Positions 3,256 to 61,500 of a DNA stretch of 64,000 nt are shown piece after piece (positions within the stretch are counted from its first letter, which is position 1; the number at the start of each line of letters is the position of its first letter). The notes beneath the pieces were generated by a model. That model saw only the letters and a list, made by a program, of their open reading frames with translations, had not been told where the DNA came from and did no database searches. The stretch comes from Eledone cirrhosa (lineage: Eukaryota): the NCBI GenBank assembly GCA_964016885.1, contig OZ024742.1, forward strand, positions 8,432,001-8,496,000, given 5' to 3'. A program made the position numbers and the translations under genes.

Positions 3256-3259
<4 letters not shown>
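3122..3259. mobile_element. Small asymmetric fold-back element; same family at 25508-25730
   Basis: aagtggttacacaacagttagttca / tgaactaactgttgtgtaaccactt inverted pair plus left extension, in (TA)n; related sequence occurs twice at 25508-25568 and 25655-25730. Confidence 0.65.
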
Positions 3260-3353
<94 letters not shown>

Positions 3354-3556
3354 AGTAAGCAGTTATACGTACATACATATGTGTATACAGACGTACAGTC
3401 GTATGTATGCATATACATACATGCACATATATATATGTACGTATGGGTTTACCGAACATTTATTATAATGTTCGGTTTGTTTGTAAACAAACAGCGAATT
3501 AAGCCGTACATTGTTCGGCAACCATCGTTGCCCTTTTGTTCAACACTGGCAAGGGA

Positions 3557-3599
3557 ACGATGAACTAGTTTCAAGCTTATTAGCTATCGTCAGCATCGT
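3557..3599 (-). ncRNA. Minimal type I hammerhead ribozyme (retrozyme unit 1)
   Basis: Reverse complement: acgatg-CTGACGA-t agct aata agct t-GAAA-ctag-TT-catcgt; perfect 6-bp stem I, palindromic stem III ACTAGT. Confidence 0.9.
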
Positions 3600-3986
3600 A
3601 TACCTTCCTGTCAGATGATTGAACGTTTAAAAGTATATACTTTCCTTATGCATATATTAACGACTGAGCAGCCTAATTTGCATATCGAGTGAGTTAGTTG
3701 GCCGGGCGTACCGAAAATGATAAATGGAAAATAATGAAATGAAATTTCATTTCTCACTCTTAGTACGGCTGATACTTACATGTAAGTATGTATACATACA
3801 TATATGTATACAGACGTACAGTAGTATGTATATATATACATACATGCACATATATATATATATATGAACGTATGGGTTTACCGAACATTTATTATAATGT
3901 TCGGTTTGTTTGTAAACAAACAGCCCGAATTAAGCCGTACATTGACGGCGACCATCGTTGCCCTTTTGTTCAACCCTGGCAAAGGA

Positions 3987-4029
3987 ACGATGAACTAGTT
4001 TCAAGCTTATTAGCTATCGTCAGCATCGT
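3987..4029 (-). ncRNA. Minimal type I hammerhead ribozyme (retrozyme unit 2)
   Basis: Identical to 3557-3599, shifted by 430 nt. Confidence 0.9.
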
Positions 4030-4129
4030 ATACCTTCCTGTCAGATGATTGAACGTTTGAAAGTATATACTTTCCTTATGCATATATTAACACTGACAAA
4101 GGAACCATGAAATTTCATTTCATTCCTTT

Positions 4130-4186
<57 letters not shown>

Positions 4187-4195
4187 AATATATAT

Positions 4196-4910
4196 GAGCG
4201 AGAATCGTATTTCGGCTATTGGAAATTAGCGAAGAACAACTTCCGAGATGTGTGGCAAGCGCTCCATAGAAGCTAGTGAACTAGAGCTACAACATAAGTT
4301 GAAAGGCCAAACACACTGAGACGATGGTTAGACCATTATCCGCACAGCCATAGAAACGACCAAGTAATTCGGGTCAAACAAATATGATTGAAAATTATAC
4401 CCGGACCCCTGGAAGGTTGGTAATATCCAGCATTGGGTTTCTGCAACTCCTAAATGAAGTACTGTCTGCTTAGACGAATAATTTTAAGCTTTTGGTATGA
4501 TGATCGAACAAGGAAGTCAATTCCTCAACAGGCTTTTAGTTCAGTGCCAAGCCAAGGACTGACCGTTTTCAAAACCCACGTGGGGCTTGACAAGGGGGGC
4601 AACCCTTAGTTTTGGCGGATGAATTCAGTATGTGTGTTATTGCAAAATTGCAAAATATCACAAAACGAATTAAGCTCTCAACAGAATGGTTTTAAAATTA
4701 ACAAAAGCTATTAATCAGTCAATAGAATTAACTAAAAAAATCAAGAAAATTAACTGGTCAATAGCTAGACTCTGGAGATTAATACAAATATAAATTAGCG
4801 AGAATCGTATTTCGGCTATTGGAAATTTGCGAAAAACAACTTCCGAGATGTGTGGCAAGCGCTCCATAGAAGCTAGTGAACTAGAGCAACAATATAAGTT
4901 AAAAGGCCAA

Positions 4911-4916
<6 letters not shown>
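4196..4916. repeat. Unclassified element with ~120-bp terminal direct repeats
   Basis: agcgagaatcgtatttcggctattgg...aaaggccaaacacac at ~4197-4316 and ~4797-4916 (600-nt period), between microsatellites. Confidence 0.7.
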
Positions 4917-7449: not shown

Positions 7450-7527
7450 AATTACCTTGTCTGACGAACGAATGAGGACGTTTCTTGTATTCGTCTTATT
7501 CGGGAAACCTCTGGTAATGAGGTAATT
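7450..7527 (+). ncRNA. Type I hammerhead ribozyme
   Basis: aattaccttgt-CTGACGA(7461)-a cgaatgaggacg...cgtcttattcg g-GAAA(7504)-cc tct gg-TA-atgaggtaatt; 11-bp stem I with 2 GU pairs, 12-bp stem II. Confidence 0.85.
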
Positions 7528-7543
7528 ATATTGTATTGTTTAT

Positions 7544-7605
<62 letters not shown>

Positions 7606-7610
<5 letters not shown>

Positions 7611-10600
7611 TCGCTGTTATGGCATTAGCTTGTACCAAGCTGAAAGGTTATTGAAAGACACTGTTTTCTGTTATATAAAAACTACAATAACAACTGAACA
7701 AATCTGCTTCTTAAAACACTGTGTTTCCTTCAAAATATACACAACAAACATATCAAAACAAGTAAATAATTTATTATTGAACAAAACACAAGCTGAACGA
7801 CTAAAAAACACAATAACAGTTAATATGAAAAGAACAACATACACAAAAGTTAACGAACTTTACAGACAGAAACGCTTTAACGGTAAGGAAGTCCGAAATC
7901 TCACCACACCAAACGAGAGAGATAACTTCATGAGCGTCATTCGACGTGAAACGAAATACGCCCGAAACGAATGCAATAGGCATTTCAATAAGAAATTAGA
8001 ATGGATGAATAAGAAAAAAACTAGAAGAAAGAAAATAAAATATTCCCCAAAATACCCTGCTAACATCAACAATATCCGTATGACTGATGTAGAACTACCG
8101 GAAGAATTTACCAATGACCACACAGTAAATATTTATGGGAACACTTTAATCAGTGAACAAGAACAACACATTCTGCAGCTACCACCGAGATTTGCTATCT
8201 ACAAAAAGATTAACCCTATGAAGTGCAAAACGGAGCTGGAAAAGTGTTTCACAAAAATACGTTGGAATGCAAAAGTAAACAACAACAACAACTATACGGA
8301 CAACAACAACAATAAAAACGATAATAGTAATAAAAATAATAACTCTGAGTATAGAAATAACAGCTATAATAGTAATAATCATAACAATAACAATAGCAGG
8401 AAAGTGAGAAATAGTAATAATGGTAATAATATTAACGATAAACAGAACAACAACAACAACCACAATAATAATAATAGAAACATTAACGACAGACACAGCA
8501 GCAGCGACCACAGTAGTATAACTGTAACAATACGAATAACAACAACAACAACCACAGTGGTAATAATATAAATAATATATGTAGCAACATTAATGATAGG
8601 CACAACAACAACAAAAACAAGAAACATAATAAAAGTAACAACCACAATGGTAGAAATAACAGTAATAACAACAAAAACGGTGGAGAAAACAACAACAATA
8701 CATCTGACAATCACAGCAACAATACATCTAGCAATCATAACAATAATAATAATTCTAATGATAGGAACAACAACAACCATAATAACAATAATAGCAACAC
8801 ACACAACTATGACGATAGATATAATGACAACCCCTTAGAGAAAGTATTCTTCAACCCAGCTGACAAAACATATAGGATGGGTAATATCTATCCTACGAGG
8901 TTACCCTTTAATAAAAGAGTTTGCATACCACAACAAATAGATGACGAGACCGAGGCACAGTTCACCATAGCTAGAAATAAGATTAGACAAGTAGTAGACA
9001 GGTATACTAAGAGACAGAGCAGACCAGAGGTCCAACAACTTGGGAGGAAACCTGTAGAAGGCTTGGTTAGCCTCAAGCAGCGCACAAGGGATGGTGAGGT
9101 AGTATGTCTACCCACGGATAAGTCTGGTAGGATGTCAATAGACAGCATGCTGAACTACATCAAGGCTATGCAACCCCACATTACCAACACGAGCGAAATT
9201 GCACAGCAAACACACGATGGGAGAGAGAAAATCCTAACGCTCATATGATGATGTGGACCGACACCCTAAAGCCAAGCAGTCGTGCTGCCAACAACTTCCA
9301 GGCGTCTAACAATGGCATACCACCCTTGTATGGGCTCCGCAAAGACCACAAGACAGTCGACGACCTGAAAACAGGACCACCAACAAGACCTGTATGCGGA
9401 GCAAATATAGCTATCAACTACAGGATCTCCTACTTCCTCTCAATGGTTATACGCTCCATAATCAAGATGTCACCAGATGTATGTGACAGTACAGAGGACC
9501 TCCTCAGCAGAATCAGTGAGTGCAACAAAAACAGGAACCTATCCAACTGCATAATAGGCAGTATGGATGTGGTATCACTGTACCCATCCATTAACATTGA
9601 TTTTGCTGCGGAAAAATGTGTTGAGAGGATCATTGAGAGTGAGGTGGAGTTCTGCGACGTCGACACAGACGAACTGGCCTCCTACTTAGACTTACCTACG
9701 ACAATGACTGCCTAGACAGCCATGACCTTAGACGTTTCTGCCCCAGTAGACCCATTAGAGGTAGACCCCAACCATAACCTCAATGGCAAAAAAGACTCTC
9801 ATGGGAAGGTGGATTGGGTGGGCCAAAGCTATACGGACCGCCCAAAACAGTGATCAGGTAAGAAAAATGGTCGCACATGCAATAGGGGCTAGTATCAACA
9901 CTACCCTAAAGGGCAACATATTCAAGTTCAACGAGAAGATCTACACCCAAAATGAGGGAGCAGCCATTGGCGTCAGCATAGCTGTTGACGTTGCCAACCC
10001 TTTTATGGTATGGTGGGAAAAGAGACTCAAAGATCTCATTGATGAGAACACCATAGACCTCATCATGTACTCTCGTTACGTAGACGATATCAATATAGTA
10101 ATAAGGAGATCCCCACAAAAGAGCACTAACAAGTTTGATTTAGAACGTAGCACAATGGAAAGCACCTATCATATAGCTAATTCCATACACCAGTGTATAA
10201 CTGTAACTATCGACTACCCTTCCAAACACCCTAACAATAGACTACCTGTATTAGACACGGAACTCTGGATTAACACTATAGACGAGAGAGCCCAAATTCT
10301 CCACTCACACTTTGCTAAACCCATGACCTCCAAATACCTGATACTCAAAAACTCAGCATTGTCCAGTAGTGCTAAGTTTAATATTCTGATGGCAGACTTG
10401 GTACGAGTGATGAAGAATGTGTCCCGCATGTGCGACCCAACAGAAATGGAAAGACACATCCAACACTTCATCAACTGCATGCAGTTCTCTCGCTACAACC
10501 AAAGAGACAGAATCAGAGTATACGAAGGAGCCACGGAGAAGTATATGACCCTCATAGAACTGGACATGAAAGGTATTTGCCCATTATACAGGAGCAAAAC

Positions 10601-11191
10601 ATGGAATAGCTTAGATAGGGCTAGACATAAGGTAGGGAAAGCCACCTCATGGTACGACAACCAGAGATACCAGAGTGTGATGTTTGTGGACGCTACCCCG
10701 GGAGGAAAATTAGCTAACCAGTGTAGAAAGGCCCTGAGAAAGATCCACTTAAAGATTAAGGTGGTAGAAAAGCCAGGAACCACCATAAAATCCCTGATCA
10801 GGAAAACCTACCCTTTTAAGAAAACCCACTGTACTACAAGGAAATGTATCATATGTAAAGTAAACCCCGAATAAACTGTAAAACTAGAAACGTAGTCTAT
10901 AGCATAAGATGTACAGAGGGGACTTGCAGAAACATGACAATAACATACATAGGCGAGACAGCTCGTATCATAGGTGAAAGGATAGACCAACACCTGGGGG
11001 AACTAAAAGGACGAAAACACGGTTCAGTACTATGCGAACACGCCAAACAACAACATAACGGTAACATAGACAACATAGAAATTAAAATGATATCTAAACA
11101 TAGAAATGACCCAGCAGATAGGCAAATCAGAGAGGCCAGCGACATAGAACTTAGAAGGCCAAGGCTAAACAGAAAAAAACGAATGGAATAA
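7606..11191 (+). pseudogene. Frameshifted PLE RT / GIY-YIG endonuclease ORF
   Basis: PTDKSGR, PPLYGLRKDHK, TRPVCGA, GSMDVVSLYPSI, CPSRPIRGRPPTIT, QNEGAAIG, SRYVDD, LPVLD; endonuclease CTTRKCIIC..CKTRNVVYSIRC....C..YIGETAR...R..QH..EHAKQQH; several frameshifts (~8.5-8.8k, 9.24k, 9.7-9.78k, 10.87k). Confidence 0.9.
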
Positions 11192-11699
11192 TAACATCCA
11201 AACAAACACTGACCTAAGAGAAGTATAAATAAATAAATAAATACATAAATAAATAAATACATACACAAGCACAATAACAACAAACACATATAAACACTCA
11301 CTAGTAAACTAAGATAGAATACATTAACCAATGCACAGTCACCCAAACAAGAACACACATCAAACAAAACACTATACACACACGCAAACGCATGCTTAAA
11401 GACAAAAAAATACGCAAATAAATAAACAGACTAAATAAAGATGGCGTAGGCATACAATGCAACGGGAGGAAACATAATAGCACCACTGGCGATGTTGGAG
11501 ATGTGCAACGAAAGAACTTTGATAGACTGCGTTTGTGTCTATATTGTATCTGTATTTTTGACTGTTGGTCAGTCAATGGTAACATTGAGGACCGAATAAA
11601 TTAAATTAACCGATATAAAAGACAAAGAACCGAAAACCAACCAAACAGTGAGTGTGTTCTGTTATTAATTCTGGCAATATTACACAAATATGACCTTCC

Positions 11700-11700
<1 letters not shown>
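7606..11700 (+). mobile_element. Penelope-like element, Naiad-like, decayed
   Basis: RT and GIY-YIG fragments 7606-11191 followed by ~500 bp of 3' non-coding sequence; flanked by (TA)n. Confidence 0.85.
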
Positions 11701-11728
<28 letters not shown>

Positions 11729-13134: not shown

Positions 13135-13596
<462 letters not shown>

Positions 13597-25163: not shown

Positions 25164-25201
25164 TTCTTAACGTTTCGGGCACTAGTCCTTCATCAGAAAA
25201 A
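25164..25201 (-). ncRNA. Minimal type I hammerhead ribozyme
   Basis: Reverse complement: ttttt-CTGATGA-agg actagtg ccc-GAAA-cg-TT-aagaa. Confidence 0.75.
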
Positions 25202-26715: not shown

Positions 26716-26779
<64 letters not shown>

Positions 26780-26780
<1 letters not shown>

Positions 26781-26986
26781 AGAATGAAACGAATTTTCAT
26801 TTCTCACTGTTAGTACGGCACTTTCTTAAATGTAAGTATGTATGTATACGTACATAGATATATGTATACATACGTACAGTAGTATGTATATATATACATA
26901 CATGTACACATATATATATATGCACGTATCGGTTTACCGAACATTTATTATAATGCTCGGTTTGTTTGTTTGTAAACAAACAAACA
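26780..26986 (-). mobile_element. Fragment of the 430-nt retrozyme-like repeat (no HHR)
   Basis: Matches ~3735-3925. Confidence 0.75.
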
Positions 26987-27489: not shown

Positions 27490-30400
27490 CACACCAGAAC
27501 ACACCTCACCACATTACACCACACTACACTACACCGCACCAGAACACAACACACCTCACTACACTACTCCACACTACATTACACTACACTACAATGCACC
27601 ACACTACAACACACCTCACTACACCATACTACACCACAACACACCTCACTACACTACACCACAACACAGCATGCCTCACTACACTACACTACACCACAGT
27701 ACATTACACTGCACTACACCACACTACATTACACTACACTACAATACACCACACTACACTATACTACACAACACTACAACACAACACACCTCACTACATT
27801 ACACCACACTACACCACACTACATTACACTACACTACACCACACTACACTACACTACACCAGAACATACCTCACTTCATTACACTACACCACACCACACC
27901 ACAACACACCTCACTACACTACACCACACTACATTACACTACACTACAATACACCACACTACACCACAACACAGCACATCTCACTACACTACACCACACT
28001 ACACCTTAATACAGCTCACCTCACTACACTACACCACACTACACTACACCATACTACACGACACTACACCACATCTTACTACACCACACTATACTACACT
28101 ATACTACAATATACCACACCACACAACACTACACCACACTATACCACACCATACTACACCACACTACACCACACCACACTTCACTACACCACTGCACACC
28201 CCACCCCACCACACTACACTACACTACACAACACTACACTATAGTACACTACACCACACCATACCATACCACACCACACTACACTACACCACACTACACT
28301 ACACCACACCACACAAAAACTACACTACACCCCCCCCCCCCACACTACACCAGAAGACACCTAACTACACTACACCATTCTACACCACACCACACTACAC
28401 CACACTACACTACACCACAACACAGCACACCTCACTACACTACAGACCACTACATTACACTATAATACAACACACCTCACTACACCACACTACACTACAC
28501 CACAACACAGCACACCATACTACACTACACTACACTACAACACAACACACCTTACTACACTACACTACACCACGCCACACCACACTACACTACACCACAC
28601 CACCCCACACTACACCAGAAGACACCTCACTCCACTATACCACTCTACACCACACCACACCACACTACAACACAGCACACCTCACTACACTACACCACAC
28701 CACACTACACCACACTACACTACACCACACTACACTACACTACACCACAACACAGCACACCTCACTACACTACACCATACTACATTACACTACAATACAA
28801 CACACCTCACTACACCACACTACACTACACTACACCACAACACAGCACAGCACACTACACTACACTACAACACAACACACCTCACTACACTACACCACAC
28901 TACGCTACACTACAACATAACACACCTCACTACACTATACTACACCACACTACAACACAACACACCTCACTACACTACACAACACTACACTACAACACAA
29001 CACACCACACTACAACACAACACACCTCACTACACTACCCCACACTTCACTACAACACACTCTACTACACTACAACACAGCACACCTCACTACACTACAC
29101 CACACTACACTACACTACAACACAGCACACCTCGCTACACTACACCACAACATTGCACGCCACACTACAATACACCTCAACACAGCACACCTAATTACAC
29201 TACACCACACTACATTAAAACACAACCCACCTTACTACACCATACTACACTACACCACACTACACCACACTACACTACACCACATTACAACACAACACAC
29301 CTCATTAGAATACACTACACCACACTATAACACAACACACCTCACTACACTACACCAAACTACACTACAACACAACACACCTCACTACACTACACCAAAC
29401 TACACTACAACACAACACACCTCACTACACTACACCACACTATACTACAGCACAACACACCTCACTACACTACACTGTAATATACCGCACTATACTACAC
29501 CACACTACAACACAACACACCTCACTACACTACACTACACTGCACTACAACACAACACACCACACCTCACTACATTACACCACACTACACTACAACACAG
29601 CAAACCTCCTTATACTACACCACAACATTGCACACCACATTACACTACACCTCAACACAGCACACCTCACTACACTACACCACACTATACTACAGCACAC
29701 CACACCTCACTACACTACACAATACTACACCGCACTATACTACACCACACTACAACACAACACACCTCACTACACTACACCACACTACACTACACTACAA
29801 CACACTCTACTACACTACAACACAGCACACCTCACTACACTACACCACACTACACTACACTACAACACAGCACACCTCGCTACACTACACCACAACATTG
29901 CACGCCACACTACAGTACATCTCAACACAGCACACCTAATTACACTACACCACACTACACTACAACACAACCCACCTCACTACACCACACTACACTACAC
30001 CACACTACACTACACCACATTACAACACAACACATTTCATTACACTACACCACACTACATTACAACACAACCCACCTCACTACACCACACTACACTAGAC
30101 CACACTACAACACACCAAACTACACTACAACACAACACACCTCACTACAATATACTACAATACAACACAACACACCTCACTACACTACACCACACTACAC
30201 TAGACCTCAGAACAGCACACCTCACTACACTACACCACACTACAACACAAGACACCTCACTACACCACACTACAACACAACACAACACACCTCACTACAC
30301 AACACCCTACTACACCACACTACAAAACAACACACCTCACTACACTACACCAAACTACACTACAACACAACGCACCTCACTACCCTATACTACAATACAA

Positions 30401-30520
30401 CACAACAAACCTCACTACACTACACCACACTACACTACACCACAACACAGCACACCTCACTACACAACACCTTACTACACCACACTACACTACACCATAC
30501 TACACCACAGAGCATCACGC
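27490..30520. repeat. Degenerate pentanucleotide array (ACACT/ACACC/ACAAC)n
   Basis: ~3 kb of 5-bp periodic sequence; the HYTTL ORFs are artefacts of it. Confidence 0.95.
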
Positions 30521-30744: not shown

Positions 30745-31691
30745 GTTGGTAGAGTGTTGTGATGGTAGTGTAGTGTTGGTGGAGTACTGTTGGTGGTGTT
30801 GTGATGGTGGTATAGTGTTGGTACAGTGTTGTGATGGTGGTGTTGTGATGGTGGTGTTGTGTTAGTGGTTATATCATTGGTACAATGTTGTGATGGTGGT
30901 GTTGTGTTGGTGGTGTTGTGGTGGTGGTGATGTGTTGGTGGTGTTGTGTTGGTGGTGTTGTGATGGTGGTGTTTTGATGGTGGTGTAATGTTGATACAGT
31001 GTTGTGATGGTGGTGTAGTGTTGGTACAGTGTTGTGATGGTGGGGTAGTCTTGGTACAGTGTTGTGATGGTGGTGTAGTGTTGATACAGTGTTGTGATGG
31101 TGGTGTTGTGATGGTAGTGTTGTGTTGGTAGTGTTGTGTTGGTAGTGTTGTGTTGGTAGTGTTGTGATGGTGGTGTTGTGATGGTAGTGTTGTGTTTGTT
31201 GTGTTGGTCGTGTTGTGATGGTAGTATTGTGATGGTAGTGTTGTGATGGTAGTGTTGTGTTGGTAGTGTTGTGTTGGTAGTGTTGTGATGGTAGTGTTGT
31301 GTTGGTAGTGTTGTGTTGGTAGTGTTGTGATGGTAGTGTTGTGATGGTAGTGTTGTGATTGTAGTGTTGTGTTGGTAGTGTTTTTATTGTTCTCTTTTGG
31401 GTGGAGGGGGAGACTTCGATATGTGATGGACATCACTATGATGGAGGTCACTATGATGGAGGTCACTTTGATGGACATCACTATGATGGAGGTGACCATG
31501 ATGGAGGTCACGTGTCACAGTTTGTGGCCGTTTATTGCCTTCTTCCTGTTTCCGTTAATCAAAGGGTGATGTCTCACTTCGCTGACATGGCTTCTTCCGT
31601 TGCGTTGACGTTGGTTATGTTACTACTACTACTACTACTACTACTGCTGCTGCTGCTGTTGTTGCTATGGCTGCTGCTGCTGCTGCTGCTG

Positions 31692-36278: not shown

Positions 36279-37646
36279 CACACATCTCTACAAATATATA
36301 TACACACATACACACGCACACATACATATATACATACACACATAAATATACATAGACATATACATACACACACATACATACACATATATATACATACATA
36401 TATATACATATACATATATATATATATATATAGACATACACACTTATTTACATGCGCACATATGTATTTTTATACTCACATACAAACACTCAAACATACA
36501 TACCTACTTACAAACACATACATACATCCACGCTTACAAATACAAATAATTATAGGGGGTGGAAGGGGATTAAAATTATTAGTGGGAAATAGTAAATAAG
36601 AATATTAATCTGCATTTAGATCATAATATGCGTTTACATAGTAGTTTTAGTATTAGGAAATGTAAAAAAAAAGGCAAAATTATGCATTTTAATATAAGTA
36701 TACTATTAATTATAGGTTAACTAAATTAAAAATAGTTAATATATTGATTTCTAAGGTGTATACTACTTAGGTTTATAATATTTAAAGCGGAATTTTGAAG
36801 TTAAACAGTAGTAGAGTATTAATTATAGCATAACTAAATTAAAAATATTAACATGATGGTATCAATATTAGGAAATGAAATTTAGTAATAGGGAAAACCA
36901 AATCAAGTATTTCATCGGTAGTAGAATATAAATTATAGGTTAACTAAATTAAAAATTATATATTAAATTCTATAGTATATGTTAATTAGGTTTATAATAA
37001 TTAAAGCAGATTTTGTATTTTATCTATAGTGGAATATAATTATAGGTTAACAAAAATTAAAATTAATATATATATATATATATATATATATTAATTGTAA
37101 AGAATATATTAATTAGGTATATATTTAAAAATTTATCTCAGTTTATGATTACATGATATTCTGCAATCTATCTGTATTAGAATTTTAATTTTAAGCTAAT
37201 TAAATTAAAATTATAGGTTAACTAAATTAAAATGAATTTATAAATAAATTTCTAAATTGTACATTAATTAGGTTTATAATATTAAAAAATATCTCTCTGT
37301 TATTGATTACACGATATTTTGTTATATTTCATCTGTAAAGGAATTTTAATAAAAGGTTAAATAAACTAAAATTAATCTATAAATTAATTTACAAAGTATA
37401 TATTAATTATGATAATAATATTTAAAAGTTTTTCACAATTTATGATTACACAATATTTTTTAATCTCATCTGTAGTAGAATTTAATTAAATTAAATTTAT
37501 AGGTTAACTACATTTAAATTAAATTATATATTAATTTCTAAAATATATATTATTAATTAGGTTTATAATATTTAAATGTTTTTCTCAGTTTATGATTACA
37601 CGATATAATTAATTCCTATCGCTTATTTAATAGGATATCCTATATA

Positions 37647-37731
<85 letters not shown>

Positions 37732-38086
37732 TCGTGGGTATGTGTATGTTTATGTGTATATGTGCGTGTGTGTGTGTGAATGTATGTATATGTGTGTGTA
37801 TATATGAATATGTATATATGTTTATATACGTATGTGTATTTTATCTGTAGATTATAAACATACAGAGACATTAGCCCTGAATTTTTGTATTTGCATACAT
37901 TTTTTCGACATGCGTATACATGTGAACATATATTCTTATGCATATCTGTGAACAAAGTTACTTACATATATACACACACCTAACTGTATTTTCTTGATAT
38001 ATTTTTGTGTATTTCATTGGTCAATTTGAACTCTGTTCCCAAACAGACCTGTAATTTTGAATTGTTGTTATTATCAATAAATATAT

Positions 38087-38239
38087 TTCATTATTTCTGA
38101 AGACGGCATATGTATGTGTTGGTATGTATATTAAATTTGATAGTTTGTATAATTTTGTATAATTTTGTACATAGATCTGTTGAATATGCATGCCAATTCT
38201 AACACATATATGTCCTAGAAACGATCGTTAAATAATGAA
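38087..38239 (+). ncRNA. Type I hammerhead ribozyme with ~114-nt stem II domain
   Basis: ttcattattt-CTGAAGA-c ggcatatgtatgtgtt...aacacatatatgtc cta-GAAA-cgatcg-TT-aaataatgaa; perfect 10-bp stem I. Confidence 0.88.
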
Positions 38240-38588
38240 CTTTTTTTGTTTAATATAAGGAACTGTTTCATTGTTTTATTCATTATTTTTTTAATACTTT
38301 ATCTTGAATCTGTATTCCGTTTATCTTTCACCGAAAGTGATTTTTGAATGCATCTCTTCTTTCCATGATATCCGGATTACATTGAGTTCTTCATACGGAT
38401 TGGACACTACCGTAAACTCTTGGTAGATCTATCTACATAATTTGCTCCTATTTTCACGGAAATATTCGTATTTTTGTACTGTATGTGTGTGTTAATTTTA
38501 TATTTATGTATATACATATATATGTATGATTTTATAACCCCATATACATTTAGTTGAGCTCTTTCTATTGTCCATCATCCATATCACA

Positions 38589-41024
38589 ATGGAAAAACAA
38601 TACTTGGGAACCTCTCTAAAGAATATACCAATACCTTCTAAGGATGACTTCTTACTCCTTATGATACAGAAAACTAACCAATTTATCAGAAGAGTTAGAT
38701 GGAGGGCCTACCACTTCGATAAAAAATCTAAATATGCAGATAGGAAATATATGTATGATTTCAATACTTACAAAAATCCACCACACAACTCTCTACTTGA
38801 AGACTTTGAGAAAGACCTTTTTAATTTAATTAAACACCTCAAATTTAAGAAGTATAAATCTGTCTTTCAAAGGGACCTTGATTCTACCCTATTGGACCTA
38901 AAAAAGTCTAAAAAAATCCATGTCCACTCGGACAAAACTGGAAACTTGTATCACATGGATATTGAGGATTATAATGAGTTCATATATAAAGAACTCAGGA
39001 AAAATTATAAAAAATCTAATAATGCGTCACTCACCAACATTAACAACAAAACACACAACATAGTAAAAAAACTAAACATTGAAGATAGAACTGAACCTTT
39101 GGCATTGAAAAGACCACACTTCAACCTGAAGGATCATAAATCAAACTTTAACTCAAATCCTCCTATAAGACTTATATGTCCCTCCAAATCTGATATTGGA
39201 ATAATTAGCAAAAAAATTTTGGATAGAGTCATCCCACAAATAAGAAAACATGTTAATTTACCACTCTGGGAAAACACTTCCCAGGTAATTAACTGGTTTA
39301 AAAATATTAAATGTAAATCTTCTGCTTCATTTCTACAATTTGATATAGATAATTACTATTCTTCTATATCACCTATACTCCTGAACAAAGCTTTGATATT
39401 TGCTAAAAATAGATCTAACTTAACTTTGGATGACATTAATATTATTACACATGCTAGACTAACACTTATTGAATTTCAGAATGAATACTGGACCAGAAAC
39501 ACATATAGTAATCTATTTGATATTACTATGGGTTCAAGCGATTCTGCCCAAATTACTGATCTTGTGGGCCTCTTTCTTCTTTTCAACATAAATGCTTCCT
39601 TTCCCCACCTTAAAGGTGGTTTATATCGTGATGACTGTCTTCTTCTTTCCAACAACCTTAGCCTCTCAGAAATAGAAAAAAACAAAAAGCTTATTAGAAC
39701 TTTCCTTAAAGACTATTATAGTCTTCATATTACTTTTGAAAACACAAGTAAAGTAGTTAATTTCCTAGATATAACTTTAGACTTAGCTACGGGTATCTAC
39801 CAACCTTACCATAAACCCAACCAAAACTTACACTACATACACTCACAATCTAATCACCCTAAATCTATCCTTAAAAACCTTGCATATAATATATCACTTA
39901 GAATTTCTAACCTTTCGTCTAACCAAGATGTATTTGATAAAAATGCGACCTTCTATAACGAAGCTCTAGATAGAAGTGGCCACAAAAATAGATTAGAATA
40001 TATACCTTCTACTAAAAATACTATAAACATACAACCTAATATTACCAACAAACACCAAATGAAAAGTACATACCTAAATGCCACCCACACTATACCCTAA
40101 AATACCAACAACTCCTCTAATATAAAGTATAGTAACTCTCAAAAAACTACTCATCATACAACTCTAATGAATGTTAATAATAAAACTCCTAATAAACAAG
40201 ATAAAACACCTAAATCAATAAATCTAACTAAAAATGTGCGTGGTGAGGTCATTAACATTAATCCTCCTAGTAAACATCACGATACAACCTATAAAAATAA
40301 TAAACAATATAGAAACCGTAATAGACGAGTTACTTGGTATAATGCTCCATTTAATTTACAAATTAAGGATAATATTGGTAAAAAAATTTTTTATATCTTA
40401 GAGAAAAACTTCTCGCCAAACCACAAATACCATCAACTCTTAAATAGGTCAACAGTTAAATTCTCATATTCAACAACCAAAAATATAAAACAAAATATAA
40501 GTGCCTATAATGCATATAAATGTAAAAATACCATAAGTATACCACCAATACATCAAACTAACCATAATATCTCCTCAAATACAGAATTAACGAAAGGTTG
40601 TAACTGTAGAAACAAAGCAAACTGCCCATTAAAAGGAAATTGTCTTGTTAACAACATAGTTTATAAATGTAAAGTTAAAACTAAAGATTCTATTTGCTCA
40701 TATATAGGAGCTACTTCTAACAATTTTAAGGTAAGGTTTAATACCCACAAACATAGTTTTAAAAATGCCGCACTGGCTAATACAACATCTCTAGCAGAAA
40801 AAATTAATAGTTATAGAAATAAGAATATAGAATATGATATGACCTGGAGTGTGCTCAAAAGAGCCACCCCTTATCAAAATAATAGAAATGAATGTAGATT
40901 ATGTTCCCAAGAACTATTTGAAATAATGAAATCTAAGGATATCCTATTAAATAAGCGACAGGAATTAATTATATCGTGTAATCATAAACTGAGAAAAACA
41001 TTTAAATATTATAAACCTAATTAA
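38589..41024 (+). CDS. PLE reverse transcriptase / GIY-YIG endonuclease (~810 codons) with one in-frame TAA at 40098-40100
   Basis: SDKTGN, LKDHK, RLICPSKSDIG, QFDIDNYYSSI, FDITMGSSDSAQITDLVG, GLYRDD, NFLDITLDL, SNHP; endonuclease CNCR..CPL..C..IVYKC..YIGAT..FKVR..H..CRLC..LNKRQEL..CNH; both track ORFs share a frame and 40101-40166 is open. Confidence 0.92.
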
Positions 41025-41483
41025 TAATATATATTTTAGAAATTAATATATAATTTAATTTAAATGTAGTTAACCTATAAATTTAATTTAATTAAATTCT
41101 ACTACAGATGAGATTAAAAAATATTGTGTAATCATAAATTGTGAAAAACTTTTAAATATTATTATCATAATTAATATATACTTTGTAAATTAATTTATAG
41201 ATTAATTTTAGTTTGTTTAACCTTTTATTAAAATTCCTTTACAGATGAAATATAACAAAATATCGTGTAATCAATAACAGAGAGATATTTTTTAATATTA
41301 TAAACCTAATTAATGTACAATTTAGAAATTTATTTATAAATTAATTTTAATTTAGTTAACCTATAATTTTAATTTAATTAGCTTAAAATTAAAATTCTAA
41401 TACAGATAGATTGCAGAATATCATGTAATCATAAACTGAGATAAATTTTTAAATATATACCTAATTAATATATTCTTTACAAT

Positions 41484-41610
<127 letters not shown>

Positions 41611-42397
41611 TTTAATTTTTGTTAACCTATAATTATATTCCACTATAGATACAATACAAAATCTGCTTTAATTATTATAAACCTAATTAACATATACTAT
41701 AGAATTTAATATATAATTTTTAATTTAGTTAACCTATAATTTATATTCTACTACCGATGAAATACTTGATTTGGTTTTCCCTATTACTAAATTCATTTCC
41801 TAATATTGATACCATAATGTTAATATTTTTAATTTAGTTATGCTATAATTAACACTCTACTACTGTTTAACTTCAAAATTCCGCTTTAAATATTATAAAC
41901 CTAAGTAGTATACACCTTAGAAATCAATATATTAACTATTTTTAATTTAGTTAACCTATAATTAATAGTATACTTATATTAAAATGCATAATTTTGCCTT
42001 TTTTCTTACATTTCCTAATACTAAAACTACTATGTAAACACATATTATGATCTAAATGCAGATTAATATTCTTATTTACTATTTCCCACTAATAATTTTA
42101 ATCCCCCCCCCATAATTATTTGTATTTGTAAGCGTGGATGTATGTATGTGTTTGTAAGTAGGTATGTATGTTTGAGTGTTTGTATGTGAGTATAAAAATA
42201 CATATGTGCGCATGTAAATAAGTGTGTATGTCTATATATATATATATATGTATATTTATATATATGTGTATATATATGTATGTATATATATGTGTATGTA
42301 TGTGTGTGTGTGTATATGTCTATGTATATTTATGTGTGTATGTATATATGTATGTGTGCCTGTGTATGTGTGTATATATATTTGTAGAGATGTGTGT

Positions 42398-42428
<31 letters not shown>

Positions 42429-42495
42429 CATAATTGTATGACTGTGTGTATTTCTTTATTTTTGTTTTCTTTATATATATGTATATATATATGTG

Positions 42496-42578
<83 letters not shown>

Positions 42579-42631
42579 ATGTATGTGTGTGTGTGTGTAT
42601 GTGTATGTATATTTATGTGTATGTATATATC

Positions 42632-42662
<31 letters not shown>

Positions 42663-43097
42663 GTGAGTATGTATATCTCTTTATTTATGTATGTCTGAGT
42701 TGTGTGAGTGTGTGGTTGTATGTGTATATACATACATGGATATGTGTGTGTGTGTGTGTATATATACGTATATATATGTGTGATTGTGTGTATATATATA
42801 TGTGCGTGTATGTGTATATATATGTATATATGTGTGTATATATGTGTGTATATATATGTGTGTGTATGTATATATGTATATGTATGTATGTGTGTATATG
42901 TGTATACATATATGTGTATATATATACGTGTGTTGAGAATATATGTATATATATATATATGTGTGTGTATGCATGTGTGTCTATGTATTTATATATGTAT
43001 GTGTATGTGTCTCTATGTATATGTGTATGTATATATGCGTGTATATATGTGTGTGTATGTATGTGTGTGTATATATATATATGTGTATATATATATG

Positions 43098-43133
<36 letters not shown>

Positions 43134-43763
43134 TCGGTGTGTATTTTATGTATGAGTGTGTATTCTATGTATGAGTATATATTTTATTTGTTTATTTTTT
43201 AAAATATATTTCATTTTATTTCTAAATTTATAGATACATTTTATAAATAGGCAGTTGTCTGACACCCTTAGTAATTACTGACCCCCTTCACCATCTTCTG
43301 CATATAGATGTAAAAATGTATGTGGCAGTGTTTTTGTGTACGCCTTAATGTCCATGTAGTTATAATAATAATATATACATATGTGAGTGTGTGTGTGTGT
43401 GTGTATGTTCGTGGGTATGTGTTTGTTTATGTGTATATGTGCGTGTGTGTGTGTGAATGTATGTATATGTGTGTGTATATATGAATATGTATATATGTTT
43501 ATATACGTATGTGTATTTTATCTGTAGATTATAAACATACAGAGACATTAGCCCTGAATTTTTGTATTTGCATACATTTTTTCGACATGCGTATACATGT
43601 GAACATATATTCTTATGCATATCTGTGAACAAAGTTACTTACATATATACACACACCTAACTGTATTTTCTTGATATATTTTTGTGTATTTCATTGGTCA
43701 ATTTGAACTCTGTTCCCAAACAGACCTGTAATTTTGAATTGTTGTTATTATCAATAAATATAT

Positions 43764-49484: not shown

Positions 49485-50312
<828 letters not shown>

Positions 50313-55441: not shown

Positions 55442-56446
55442 ATATCTGATAATAGATATGTAGGATTTTATTGTACTCCTGTGACAAGCTTCTCGAAATA
55501 AGGTTCAATTTCCTTCTCTGAGGAATCAGTATTATAGAATTAACATACTGAAGTGACTTCCAGTTTTTGGTTTTCAATTTTAAAATCATTCTTCAACGTG
55601 TAAAACTTTCTTATTCTCTTTATTTGTGGATGAATTGAATTGATTTGTAATCAGGGAAAGCAAGAAATCCGTCCCAATAGACTTGACAATAGTATGGCAC
55701 CTCAAAAGATGGTTTATGAATGAAGTCATAATGAAGTAAGATGAGAACTATTGAAAGTTCCTCAGTATTTCTGCTCTCCATGTAGATTGTGATAAAATGG
55801 ATTAGCTAGCTATATCTGATTGTCTAAGTACTTCAGTTGTTTCTCGGGAAAATATGTCCCGAAAGTTATAGGCAGCAAAAGAAGACGACCAGGAATATTT
55901 TTCACTGTATTCTCTAGATCAGATTGTTTTTCTTGCAAAGTAAAATATTTCAGGAAGATTTTCAAATATAGCACTTTCGAGAAATAAGTTCCTGCATGTC
56001 ACTGGTGCTTTTACGGAGCCCAGCCGGTGTAAAAGCAAAGTTGATCCCTTTCTTTCCTCCGTGAGTTGAACTCAGAATATGAAAGTTTGTTACTAAATAC
56101 TTTACAGATTTCTGTCGGATGCTCTACCGATTCTGGCAATCAACCGACCAGCGTTCTTATATTGAACACTGTAGAGTTTGTCTAGTGTACTGAGTGTACT
56201 GAGTTGAACGTCTCCTGTCGGCTGTAGTACAAATAGGAATGTATGTAGGAATATATATGTTTTACGTATGTTGGTATATATAAGAATGTATGTAGGTATA
56301 TATATATATGACTGTATATTGGGATATATATATAAGCAAAAGGGATATTCAATTTGTTGCTAATTCAACAAATATAAATGTTTATAACTGATTCAGAGCA
56401 CTCGACAGTTTTTCTGGAGTATAATATTCAATGAAACTATATATAT

Positions 56447-57242
56447 AAACGGAAAAAATGAAACGAAATTTTATTTCTCACTCTTAGTACGGCTGTTACT
56501 TAAATATAAGTATGTATACGTACATACATATATGTATACAGACGTACAGTAGTATATATACATACGTACAGTAGTGTATATACATACATGCACACATATA
56601 TATATATATGTACGTATGGATTCACCGAACATTTATTATAATGCTCGGTGTGTTTGTAAACAAACATCCCGAATTAAACCGTACAGTGTCTAGCCACCAT
56701 CGTTGCTCATTTGTTCAACACTGACAAAGGAACGCTGTACTAGTTTCAAGCTTATTAGCTATCGTGAGCATCGTATACCTTCCTGCCAGATGATTGAACA
56801 TCTGAAAGTATATACTTTCCTTATGCATATTAACGGCTGAGCAGCCTAATTTGCATATCGAGTGAGTTAATCGGCCGGGTACCGAAAACGATAAACGGAT
56901 GTTCAATCATCTGGCAGGAAGGTATACGTTGCTGACGATAGCTAATAAGCTTGAAACTAGTACAGCGTTCCTTTGTCGGCTTAATTCGGGCTGTTTGTTT
57001 ACAAACACACCAAAACATTATAAAAAATGTTCGGTGAATCCATACGTACATATATATATGTGTGCATGTATGTATATATATATATACATACTACTGTACG
57101 TCTGTATACATATATGTATGTACGTATACATACTTATATTTAAGTAACAGCCGTACTAAGAGTGAGAAATGAAATTTCGTTTCATTTTTTCCGTTTACCG
57201 TTTTCGGTACCCCGGCCGATTAACTCACTCGATATGCAAATA
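56447..57242. mobile_element. Retrozyme-like repeat: full ~445-nt permuted unit plus inverted copy
   Basis: Unit runs from aaacgga (56448) to aaacgga (56893); inverted copy 56900-57242 crosses the unit junction; intact HHR 56926-56968 (+), mutated HHR (CTCACGA) ~56732-56774 (-). Confidence 0.85.
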
Positions 57243-57277
57243 CGTACATATATGTATGTACGTATACATACTTATAT

Positions 57278-57575
57278 ATTTATAAAACCATATGTATTCT
57301 ATTATATATATTTCAAGGGTACCAAAACTTTGGTACGCTCTCAGCAGATAAAATACAAAGTTTGTTTTATAAATATTGACATAACCAAGAAAAAATATCT
57401 TAACGGTTCCAGGAAAAACTTGAATCGTTAAGGTATTTTTTCTTTGTTATGTCAATATTTATAAAATAAACTTTGTATTTTATCTGATGAGAGCGTACCA
57501 AAGTTTTGGTACCCTTGCAATATATATAATAGAATAAATATGGTTTTATAAATATAGTTTCCATTTATTTAATAT
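57278..57575. mobile_element. Fold-back element with HHR on both arms (family of 14215-14629)
   Basis: Right arm: tattttat-CTGATGA(57484)-gagcgtaccaaa..tttggtaccctt-GCAA-tatata-TA-atagaata; left arm has CTGCTGA...GAAA. Confidence 0.82.
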
Positions 57576-57683: not shown

Positions 57684-57899
57684 GAAGACACGTGGCTGAG
57701 TGGTTAGAGAATTGGATTCGCAATTGTGAGGTTGTGACTTCGAATCACGAACCAGGCAATTCGTTATGTCCTTAGACAAGACACTTTATTTCACGTTGTC
57801 CTTTTACCTGGAGTTATGACCGATAGAGAGTATTATCAATTGGAAAGACTAACGGAAACATTGCTTCCTCGGTCCGATTTGACGAACGTCGATCGACTT
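57684..57899 (+). mobile_element. tRNA-derived SINE family B
   Basis: Reverse-complement homolog of 48355-48571. Confidence 0.85.
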
Positions 57900-57913
57900 A
57901 TATATATATATAT

Positions 57914-58339
57914 ATATTAATAAGAGGAATTCCAACTTTGTCTGATTTACTCGTTTTATTTACGATCCTTTAAAATTTATAATGGTATTATAATGAAATA
58001 GTATGGTAGAATATTAAATTCTAAGTGTTAATTGAACAACTACTTTCATGCTTTCGCAATCTTCAGGTTCATAATGTGTGGTGACAGTCAAGTTTGCAAT
58101 TTTCAACTGTGAAATTGCAAACTTGACTGTCACCACATAATATGAACCTGAAGATTGCGAAAGCATGAAAGTACTTCTTCAATTAACACTTAGAATTTAA
58201 TATTCTACCATACTATTTCATTATAATACCATTATAAATTTTAAAGGATCGTAAATAAAACGAGTAAATCAGACAAAGTTGGAATTCCTCTTATTAATAT
58301 AATCTTCTATACACAATCATACACACCTGTGTATATTTA

Positions 58340-58520: not shown

Positions 58521-61500
58521 CCTTCTTCAGTGTAAACCTACAGACTCTGCACTGCTAGACTGCCCTATCTCAGTACATATTTTCTAGTATACTTCTTCAG
58601 TGTAAACCTACAGACTCTGCACTGCTAGACTGCCCTATCTCAGTACATATTTTCTAGTATACTTCTTCAGTGTAAACCTACAGACTCTGCTCTGCTAGAC
58701 TACCCTATCTCAGTACATATCTTCTAGTATACTTCTTCAGTGTAAACCTACAGACTCTGCTCTGCTAGACTACCCTATCTCAGTACATATCTTCTAGTAT
58801 ACTTCTTCAGTGTAAACCTACAGACTCTGCACTGCTAGACTGCCCTATCTCAGTACATATTTTCTAGTATACTTCTTCAGTGTAAACCTACAGACTCTGC
58901 TCTGCTAGACTGCCCTATCTCAGTACATATTTTCTAGTATACTTCTTCAGTGTAAACCTACAGACTCTGCTCTGCTAGACTGCCCTATCTCAGTACATAT
59001 TTTCTAGTATACTTCTTCAGTGAAAACCTACAGACTCTGCTCTGCTAGACTACCCTATCTCAGTACATATCTTCTAGTATACTTCTTCAGTGTAAACCTA
59101 CAGACTCTGCTCTGCTAGACTGCCCTATCTCAGTACATATTTTCTAGTATACTTCTTCAGTGTAAACCTACAGACTCTGCACTGCTAGACTGCCCTATCT
59201 CAGTACATATCTTCTAGTATACTTCTTCAGTGTAAACATACAGACTCTGCTCTGCTAGACTGCCCTATCTCAGTACATATCTTCTAGTATATTTCTTCAG
59301 TGTAAACCTACAGACTCTGCTCTGCTAGACTGCCCTATCTCAGTACATATTTTCTAGTATACTTCTTCAGTGTAAACCTACAGACTCTGCACTGCTAGAC
59401 TGCCCTATCTCAGTACATATCTTCTAGTATACTTCTTCAGTGTAAACATACAGACTCTGCTCTGCTAGACTACCCTATCTCAGTACATATCTTCTAGTAT
59501 ACTTCCTCAGTGTAAACCTACAGACTCTGCTCTGCTAGACTACCCTATCTCAGTACATATCTTCTAGTATACTTCTTCAGTGTAAACCTACAGACTCTGC
59601 ACTGCTAGACTGCCCTATCTCAGTACATATTTTCTAGTATACTTCTTCAGTGTAAACCTACAGACTCTGCTCTGCTAGACTGCCCTATCTCAGTACATAT
59701 TTTCTAGTATACTTCTTCAGTGTAAACCTACAGACTCTGCTCTGCTAGACTGCCCTATCTCAGTACATATTTTCTAGTATACTTCTTCAGTGAAAACCTA
59801 CAGACTCTGCTCTGCTAGACTACCCTATCTCAGTACATATCTTCTAGTATACTTCTTCAGTGTAAACCTACAGACTCTGCTCTGCTAGACTGCCCTATCT
59901 CAGTACATATTTTCTAGTATACTTCTTCAGTGTAAACCTACAGACTCTGCACTGCTAGACTGCCCTATCTCAGTACATATCTTCTAGTATACTTCTTCAG
60001 TGTAAACATACAGACTCTGCTCTGCTAGACTGCCCTATCTCAGTACATATCTTCTAGTATATTTCTTCAGTGTAAACCTACAGACTCTGCTCTGCTAGAC
60101 TGCCCTATCTCAGTACATATTTTCTAGTATACTTCTTCAGTGTAAACCTACAGACTCTGCACTGCTAGACTGCACTATCTCAGTACATATCTTCTAGTAT
60201 ACTTCTTCAGTGTAAACATACAGACTCTGCTCTGCTAGACTGCCCTATCTCAGTACATATCTTCTAGTATACTTCTTCAGTGTAAACCTACAGGCTCTGC
60301 TCTGCTAGACTGCCCTATCTCAGTACATATCTTCTAGTATACTTCTTCAGTGTAAACCTACAGACTCTGCTCTGCTAGACTGCCCTATCTCAGTACATAT
60401 CTTCTAGTATACTTCTTCAGTGTAAAACTACAGACTCTGCTCTGCTAGACTGCCCTATCTCAGTACATATTTTCTAGTATACTTCTTCAGTGTAAACCTA
60501 CAGACTCTGCACTGCTAGACTGCCCTATCTCAGTACATATCTTCTAGTATACTTCTTCAGTGTAAACCTACAGACTCTGCACTGCTAGACTGCCCTATCT
60601 CAGTACATATCTTCTAGTATAATTCTTCAATGTAAATCTACAGACTCTGCTCTGCTAGACTGCCCTATCTCAGTACATATCTTCTAGTATACTTCTTCAG
60701 TGTAAACCTACAGACTCTGCACTGCTAGACTGCCCTATCTCAGTACATATCTTCTAGTATACTTCTTCAGTGTAAACCTACAGACTCTGCTCTGCTAGAC
60801 TGCCCTATCTCAGTACATATCTTCTAGTATACTTCTTCAGTGTAAACCTACAGACTCTGCTCTGCTAGACTGCCCTATCTCAGTACATATCTTCTAGTAT
60901 ACTTCTTCAGTGTAAACCTACAGACTCTGCTCTGCTAGACTGCCCTATCTCAGTACATATCTTCTAGTATACTTCTTCAGTGTAAACCTACAGACTCTGC
61001 ACTGCTAGACTGCCCTATCTCAGTACATATCTTCTAGTATACTTCTTCAGTGTAAACCTACAGACTCTGCTCTGCTAGACTGCCCTATCTCAGTACATAT
61101 CTTCTAGTATACTTCTTCAGTGTAAACCTACAGACTCTGCACTTCTAGACTACACTATCTCAGTACATATCTTCTAGTATACTTCTTCAGTGTAAACCCA
61201 CAGACTCTGCACTGCTAGACTGCCCTATCTCAGTACATATCTTCTAGTATACTTCTTCAGTGTAAACCTACAGACTCTGCTCTGCTAGACTGCCCTATCT
61301 CAGTACATATCTTCTAGTATACTACCTCAGTGTAAATCTACAGACTCTACTCTGCTAGACTGCCCTATCTCAGTACATATCTTCTAGTATACTTCCTCAG
61401 TGTAAACCTACAGACTCTGCTCTGCTAGACTGCCCTATCTCAGTACATATTTTCTAGTATACTTCTTCAGTGTAAACCTACAGACTCTGCTCTGCTAGAC

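Follow-up and report, generated by a model that had tools for sequence, protein, structure and literature searches.

The 64-kb window of octopod DNA analysed here (64,000 nt of an Eledone cirrhosa contig) carries at positions 3356-4137 what is, with a probability of roughly 0.7, a two-armed insertion of a non-LTR retrozyme, the multimeric transcript of which is predicted to be cut into 430-nt monomers that probably become circles and would be pasted into (AT)n by the machinery of Penelope-like elements (PLEs). Non-LTR retrozymes are a known class; the octopod family is real, and its insertion footprint is better resolved than that of the published members. The retrozyme reading, already proposed in the initial annotation of this DNA, is supported by the non-coding tandem unit, the canonical type I hammerhead, the conservation of structure between families of units and the PLE-type footprint.

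The locus and its copies in the window

On the minus strand, the locus contains two identical 43-nt hammerheads (4029-3987 and 3599-3557) spaced by exactly 430 nt, which we take to be of type I, assuming the core consensus, numbering and triplet rule of the textbooks. Each has a 6-bp stem I, a stem II of four pairs with a four-base loop and a U.U mismatch beneath, a stem III consisting of a six-base palindrome, and a GUU triplet, and the predicted cuts fall at 3993/3992 in the first hammerhead and at 3563/3562 in the second. The identity and spacing of the pair, noted at the outset, are borne out, chance being excluded by 10,575 exact matches to the 30-nt core in the 3.0-Gb genome against none for the reversed control. 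The canonical type I description likewise holds, but the U.U mismatch at the base of stem II had gone unmentioned.

The sole complete 430-nt monomer (3563-3992, minus strand; 35% GC, with a predicted branched fold) lies between the two predicted cleavage sites. It belongs to the long arm of the insertion (3356-4091, minus strand), which spans 1.7 units and whose 3' end lies at a fixed site, A (here unit position ~214), running into (CA)n/(TA)n. The locus had been described as two head-to-tail units, of which the tandem arrangement stands but the extent does not, as there is one full monomer plus partial flanks. At the arm junction, a jumped piece corresponding to unit positions ~5-21 (4090-4106, minus strand) is joined via a short common word, with a similar junction present in locus L010, and is followed by a short inverted arm (4107-4137, plus strand; unit ~243-276), the end of which is a second fixed site, B, in (AT)n. 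The locus obeys the rule of one site per arm described below, with the long arm ending at A and the short arm at B. The target is microsatellite on both sides, (TA)n plus (CA)n next to site A (3258-3353) and (AT)n next to site B (4132-4195). The insertion was thus correctly recognized at 3355-4125 but reaches 4137, the plus arm and the jumped piece having been missed. A 135-bp direct repeat that adjoins the insertion (4182-4316 and 4782-4916; 95% identical) is unrelated to the unit.

The overlapping unit copies inside the locus are separated by 18 substitutions and 11 gap columns across ~315 nt, and the monomer differs from the closest of 18 other monomers by 28 substitutions and 5 indels. Given this divergence from its relatives, the locus is an older copy of the GUU type, possibly silent, and it is doubtful that the locus itself is still active. 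The unit has no protein-coding capacity, its ORFs being short and of low complexity (the longest of 86 aa), and no LTR architecture was present among the 310 arms examined.

The further copies reported at 13135, 26780 and 56447 are genuine copies of the unit, but they do not all carry intact hammerheads. The second copy in the window (13137-13445, plus strand) is 5'-truncated, has a single GUA hammerhead (13190-13232) and ends at site A in (AT)n, and the third (26776-26982, minus strand) has no hammerhead and ends at site B in (AT)n. The fourth (56445-57280) is two-armed, with a minus arm leading to site B, in which the hammerhead core is mutated, and a plus arm leading to site A, with internal jumps and an intact hammerhead (56926-56968).

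Structure of the hammerhead and of the unit

Across 135 distinct hammerhead copies, the pairs of stems I and II vary among A-U, U-A, G-C, C-G and wobble, with the core and stem III constant. In a set of 73 distinct sequences, 8 of the 12 pairs are altered on both sides, a value reached by 0 of 500 shuffles and not by slid structures, which score lower; these counts are inflated by relatedness, the copies within arrays being non-independent, and the core had been required by the search. Copy number and covariation, for which a genome-wide check had been proposed, come to at least 25,000 hammerheads in the family of the locus (family A), with stems covarying around an unchanged core. The initial annotation had argued for selection on structure from a change in stem I that kept its pairing; conservation of structure is confirmed between families, but the quoted change is weak evidence alone, since it turns an A-U pair into a U.G wobble and 3 of the 135 copies have the intermediate U.U.

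At the base of stem II, 69 of the 73 distinct sequences have no pair, and family A mostly lacks a G-C there (97 U.U and 11 C.A among 135). The same U.U is found in axolotl HHR_Amex2, for which weak cleavage by the single hammerhead and good cleavage by the dimer are described (PMC7229834). For the octopod hammerhead, the predicted energies are −0.8 kcal/mol for the active single-hammerhead fold and −18.4 kcal/mol for the dimer with swapped stem III, and the lowest-energy folds, at −8.5 (monomer) and −20.9 (dimer), are not the catalytic ones. A single catalytic fold that is barely stable compared with the swapped dimer predicts a self-inhibited monomer and a dimer-dependent cut. Cleavage would require two hammerheads that exchange their palindromic stem III, and dimer-only cleavage would leave a lone monomer or circle stable. 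The hammerhead of the family is very probably active; of 9 predicted retrozyme dimers from Xenopus, 8 are reported not to cleave (bioRxiv 10.64898/2026.07.22.740005).

The Rfam search proposed for the locus returned no hammerhead, whether the cutoff was the gathering score or E<=10, for which the minimal stem III is the probable reason; its only matches were low-scoring miRNAs on TA repeats. The whole-unit consensus fold has double changes in 17 of 71 pairs and follows the same branched plan in families A and B, and the internal hairpins named earlier are present in the predicted fold. When folded as circles, 6 of 6 monomers give z values of −4.8 to −11.4 (25 shuffles each), which TA palindromes inflate; the monomer of the locus gives −5.9 and, as a circle, −6.3.

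Family size, sister family and arrays

The relaxed family-A hammerhead pattern, counted for GUA, GUU and GUG with GUC left uncounted, has 23,943 GUA, 1,348 GUU and 80 GUG matches genome-wide, GUG thus making up 80 of 25,371. Only cleavage-permissive triplets have been amplified, the locus belonging to the GUU minority, and cutting therefore seems to matter for spread. With >25,000 family-A hammerheads, the family represents a sizeable and apparently unreported part of octopus genomes. That the host is an octopod is borne out by its genes, as the genome contains at least 121 exons of protocadherin type, one of them with 93% identity to an Octopus protein, and the named best matches come from cephalopods.

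A second search pattern, the 23,135 matches of which partly overlap those of family A, disclosed a sister family, B, with units of 466-470 nt that align to family A at ~62%. The core and stem III are kept between the two, and the pairs of stems I and II are swapped. Family-B copies (L078, L098, L102-L130, L196-L198 and L205-L212) have a G-C at the base of stem II and a GUU or GUC triplet. Across families, the unit length is 419-538 nt.

Some arrays are young, with identical units (L015 and L199), and others display a two-unit periodicity (ABCB in L195, IJIJ in L198), a pattern that one monomer circle could not generate. In L195 (C1:19315051-19316768), units of 420 and 422 nt that are 14-16 substitutions apart alternate, alternate units being 0-4 apart, and both unit types occur at separate loci too. 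Arrays of 15-32 units far exceed the length that a truncation rate of 0.36%/nt would allow in one pass and, together with the alternating units, point to dimeric templates or to later expansion at the DNA level.

Target-site duplications are not resolvable within (AT)n, and a single 9-nt direct repeat was found, flanking a family-A insertion that lies outside (AT)n, inside a PLE coding region (L028, 1232-2105). Loci L239-L246 and L251 contain diverged motifs resembling hammerheads, in which the stem II region measures 15-17 nt and the palindromic stem III is unchanged; they possibly represent an old family.

Insertion footprint

Arms were scored by their 3' ends, with site A defined as unit positions 205-226 and site B as 262-280. 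A first set, drawn from 100 loci and the window, comprised 163 arms. Of these, 126 have their 3' end at A or B, running into (AT)n in 92 cases, and the 5' ends are scattered; the 37 other arms include a few family-B and low-complexity chains. The result was similar for 80 further loci, with 120 of 147 arms terminating at one of the two sites and 99 of these running into (AT)n. Insertions with two orientations are arranged 5'-to-5' in 42 of 43 cases, and those that are two-armed and classifiable pair an A arm with a B arm in 26 of 29 cases in the first set and 25 of 27 in the second (51 of 56; P 6e-11 jointly), a further 13 and 14 insertions having an unclassified end. Family B has one site per arm at the homologous sites in 8 of 8 cases. 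The family-B arrays of 15 and ~32 units still terminate in one A arm and one B arm. Site A lies at unit positions 214-220 in family A and 229-234 in family B, with a tail between A and B of 56 nt and ~70 nt, respectively, and is placed within a small hairpin loop in both families as well as in a Neptune-like PLE family of the same genome.

The insertion footprint of the unit is of the PLE type, with 5' truncation, an inverted 5' arm, a one-sided tail and a microsatellite target. According to Craig et al. (2021), the inverted 5' arm and the one-ended tail are hallmarks of PLE insertions. With EN+ PLEs, those of the Neptune clade in particular, the octopod unit has in common partial tandems, 5' truncation, these two hallmarks, (TA)n targets and a hammerhead located ~200 nt short of the end (Craig et al. 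2021; Cervera and de la Pena 2014, PMC4209133). The tail of 56-70 nt compares with 30-40 nt reported for PLEs and with 45-59 nt in the PLE of the same genome.

Nature of the template

Among 94 arms chosen via an internal hairpin, independently of the hammerhead, 66 cross the cut site. Starts within 6 nt of the cut site were found for 4 of the 94, two of which are chaining artefacts, leaving 2 genuine cases against 1.5 expected, so that 5' ends do not accumulate at the cleavage site in these arms. Furthermore, 62 of 163 arms are longer than one unit. Since arms cross the cut site, a cut linear monomer is not the usual template. Judging from the DNA, the template would be either a circle or an uncut multimer, both of which fit.

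We favor the circle. The monomers would be ligated by a host ligase, and by analogy with coral, mussel and axolotl a circular RNA of the family probably forms. That the same element is copied by PLE enzymes from linear, uncut or partly cut multimers, with circles rare or irrelevant to mobility, appears rather unlikely, even though a linear multimer equally explains the crossing of the cut site and the closing stem, which forms at each junction in the natural-arm fold. The identical units of the young arrays L015 and L199 fit one template read round repeatedly, whereas the two-unit periodicity of other arrays suits linear templates; amplification is confined to cleavage-permissive triplets, yet a U.U-weakened, dimer-dependent hammerhead should leave uncut RNA; and circles are known for three other animal retrozymes, although axolotl also has multimers in vivo (PMC7229834). 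A coding PLE of several kb leaves the same footprint, again in keeping with linear templates.

Penelope-like elements as the probable copying machinery

At 3.5 kb from the locus, the window contains a broken copy of a coding PLE family (7609-11701, plus strand), the candidate helper, with RT and GIY-YIG fragments, a mutated hammerhead-like core (11486-11519) and an end in (AT)n. The C-terminal GIY-YIG and the CX4CX2C linker make this family, with 29,848 first-look candidates genome-wide, Neptune-like, an assignment by domain features rather than by tree. Its members insert into (AT)n and have two end sites separated by 45-59 nt (among 59 ends, 33 at one, 20 at the other and 6 elsewhere), one end site per arm in 9 of 9 readable back-to-back pairs, and a hammerhead-like core with a weak stem I ~200-210 nt ahead of the first end site. 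The order in the retrozyme unit, namely hammerhead, ~200 nt, site A, ~55 nt and site B, equals this terminal order. Outside the TA-rich part, no sequence similarity of the unit was found either to the Neptune-like family or to a second, young PLE family with an ORF at 38538-41024.

With the same footprint and no shared sequence, PLE machinery is well supported and the helper family is a candidate only. On these grounds, the unit is with high probability copied by PLE machinery, and the chances that the Neptune-like family provides it are evenly balanced. The suggestion that neighbouring PLEs mobilise the unit holds insofar as a neighbouring family leaves the same footprint, but it found no counterpart in common sequence. 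Nicked (AT)n would prime reverse transcription within the RNA at sites A and B, one per DNA strand, and priming at the two sites would produce back-to-back arms with the 56-nt tail on one of them.

The initial annotation had itself raised the possibility that the copies are just the terminal repeat of a coding PLE. A unit that is the pseudo-LTR (pLTR) or a deletion remnant of an unsampled coding PLE, with the copies as its 5'-truncated insertions, would account for the hammerhead/A/B order of the Neptune-like terminal repeat; moreover, Xenopus retrozymes are reported to resemble pLTRs (bioRxiv 10.64898/2026.07.22.740005), and our close examination covered two PLE families. However, PLE fragments are present in 16 of 40 ten-kb loci with no consistent junction between unit and PLE ORF, arms run 5' into another unit copy and never into an ORF in every locus read, and pure tandem arrays exist. 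Unlike EN+ PLEs, the unit has no ORF and no alignable sequence to the two PLE families tested, and its hammerhead is of the canonical retrozyme type rather than the minimal PLE type. Nine loci with longer-stem-II hammerheads and the same stem III, in which no homology was found, are also devoid of a PLE ORF within 1.5 kb. We regard this origin as highly unlikely. A fossil hammerhead within a satellite or MITE-like repeat spread at the DNA level, the ribozyme being no longer relevant, is very improbable as well, for although long arrays indicate DNA-level expansion, the TA-rich unit interior is palindromic and Rfam has no match, the copies are polar, with fixed 3' ends and random 5' ends, there are no terminal inverted repeats of a fixed element, the stems covary and GUG amounts to just 80 of 25,371.

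Several observations concern the PLEs themselves. The Neptune-like family (window 11190-11701; L215, L216 and L220-L223) is circularly permuted, ending just inside its own ORF start; its terminal repeat holds the hammerhead-like core, and stop-free frames of 975 and 1213 residues exist. The second family (window 36500-43200) is very young, having dozens of copies with an identical endonuclease domain, some with 828-residue open frames, and long AT-rich 3' repeats; its copy in the window is interrupted by a TAA stop at 40098, and no hammerhead was detected in this family by pattern search. Apparent chimeras of the unit with PLE ORFs (L008 and L067) have (AT)n in between and were set aside as separate insertions. 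Pfam searches gave nothing useful past one weak GIY-YIG match.

A promoter-like block within the unit

Outside the ribozyme, the longest near-invariant stretch between families A and B is a 12-nt block (TATGCAAATTAG; 3673-3684, minus strand), with a TATA-like box (3634-3639, minus strand) 45 nt after the block start (43-44 nt in other copies). Of the block, the eight central bases are fully preserved in 83 of 97 copies in family A and in 52 of 53 in family B, and the block is fixed while its pairing partner turns mismatch in family B and in two family-A monomers, which points to constraint on the sequence. With at most 1 difference, the block is located at −77 to −79 of U6 genes at three independent loci, of the best U6atac locus and of the one RNase MRP gene, matching one U6 gene at 12 of 12 positions and the four other host genes at 11 of 12, and each of the five has a TATA at −30. 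U6 promoters are described as following a PSE-plus-TATA rule (PMC1761439). The block is present at 22 of 30 U6 loci, 20 of them from one array, and absent from the other 5 of 6 U6atac matches and from the 5 U1 (12 fetched) and 3 U2 (30 fetched) promoters examined. A matrix built from the five host blocks selects the block of the unit in all 5 units scored, at values reached by 0-1 of 300 shuffles, a result that is partly circular because the training blocks were chosen by their likeness to the unit block.

The distance between block and TATA is 43-45 nt in the unit versus 47-49 nt in the host Pol III genes, that is, 4-5 nt short, and Pol III would meet a T6 run within the unit and terminate after ~310 nt, ahead of a second hammerhead. 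The number of 5' ends at the predicted transcription start, 15 versus 8.6, at first suggested an excess, which was lost on correction for arms at risk, with 15 versus 11.7 expected (P 0.20). Site B was also considered as a Pol III terminator and rejected, as the ends of family-A arms lie beyond the T6 run and the PLE, which lacks such a run, shares the site. The unit may be transcribed from its own U6-type block and TATA, for which the odds are about even, or else by read-through.

Taken further, the unit could be a self-promoting circular retroelement with a captured U6-type promoter, a dimer-only hammerhead, a stable 430-nt circle and mimicry of Neptune-like PLE termini for double priming. 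We consider this extended version tentative and rather doubtful; if true, it would reveal which polymerase and which helper an animal retrozyme uses and would offer, for the unresolved mechanism of PLE insertion, a substrate of 430 nt.

As to the host genes, octopod small-RNA promoters (L252-L311 and L392-L410) fall into two classes according to polymerase, one with the −78 block and TATA at −30 (U6, U6atac and MRP) and one with a different short word near −57 (U1 and U2). These classes could help to express small RNAs in cephalopods.

Comparison with known systems

Metazoan non-LTR retrozyme units are given as ~150-450 bp with GC below 45% (Cervera and de la Pena 2020, PMC7229834; PMC7761336), and units of up to 972 are listed in a vertebrate survey, covering vertebrates and four invertebrates, which ties retrozymes to PLE pLTRs (bioRxiv 10.64898/2026.07.22.740005). 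The octopod unit resembles the retrozymes of coral, mussel and axolotl in its non-coding tandem organization, low GC, one type I hammerhead per unit with a weak palindromic stem III, highly paired predicted circle and co-existence with PLEs, and, in the U.U at the base of stem II, axolotl HHR_Amex2 in particular (PMC7229834). Unlike in known metazoan retrozymes, most octopod copies lie dispersed and are truncated at the 5' end; many are two-armed, and their 3' ends fall at two fixed sites. Retrozymes seem, according to section 9 of PMC7761336, to be without a promoter and without a conserved motif that would indicate the helper; relative to that account, the octopod unit differs in carrying a motif of the host Pol III promoter type, and its cleavage and circles are predicted. 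An internal promoter motif of the small-RNA type, predicted in the octopod unit, is shared with newt satellite 2, which has a Pol II snRNA-type promoter, and with the schistosome hammerhead repeat, which has a Pol III internal promoter (both as cited in PMC2220036), whereas the octopod motif differs from these in matching the gene-external element of U6, U6atac and MRP and in being absent from U1/U2. Further literature drawn on includes PMC5680766.

No description of a cephalopod retrozyme, and no paper on a two-site footprint or a U6-type promoter in retrozymes, was found in the literature searched, which consisted largely of openly accessible papers. What transcribes retrozymes and what copies them are presented as open questions in section 9 of PMC7761336 and in the discussion of PMC7229834. 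The octopod family gives nucleotide-level handles on both, through two priming sites with a PLE-like one-per-arm rule and through the block resembling a Pol III promoter. The unit is also a small RNA substrate for the study of the inverted arms and one-sided tails of PLEs, called undefined by Craig et al.

Other repeats in the window

A back-to-back inverted repeat at 57899-58303, with ~200 bp per arm, has small hammerhead-like cores (58044-58066 on the minus strand and 58148-58170 on the plus strand) with a weak stem I and resembles another two-armed non-coding element. It is followed at ~58530-64000 by a 70-bp tandem satellite, which was rejected as a hammerhead repeat, as core-like words are present but there is no stem I. 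Hammerhead-like motif families unrelated to that of the locus occur at 7452-7530 and 50079-50116 on the plus strand and at 2890-2945, 25173-25196 and 49723-49760 on the minus strand, as well as at loci L045, L055, L068, L078, L215 and L216. The window further contains a 3-kb degenerate 5-bp satellite (27507-30509) and a 14-bp satellite (30753-31382).
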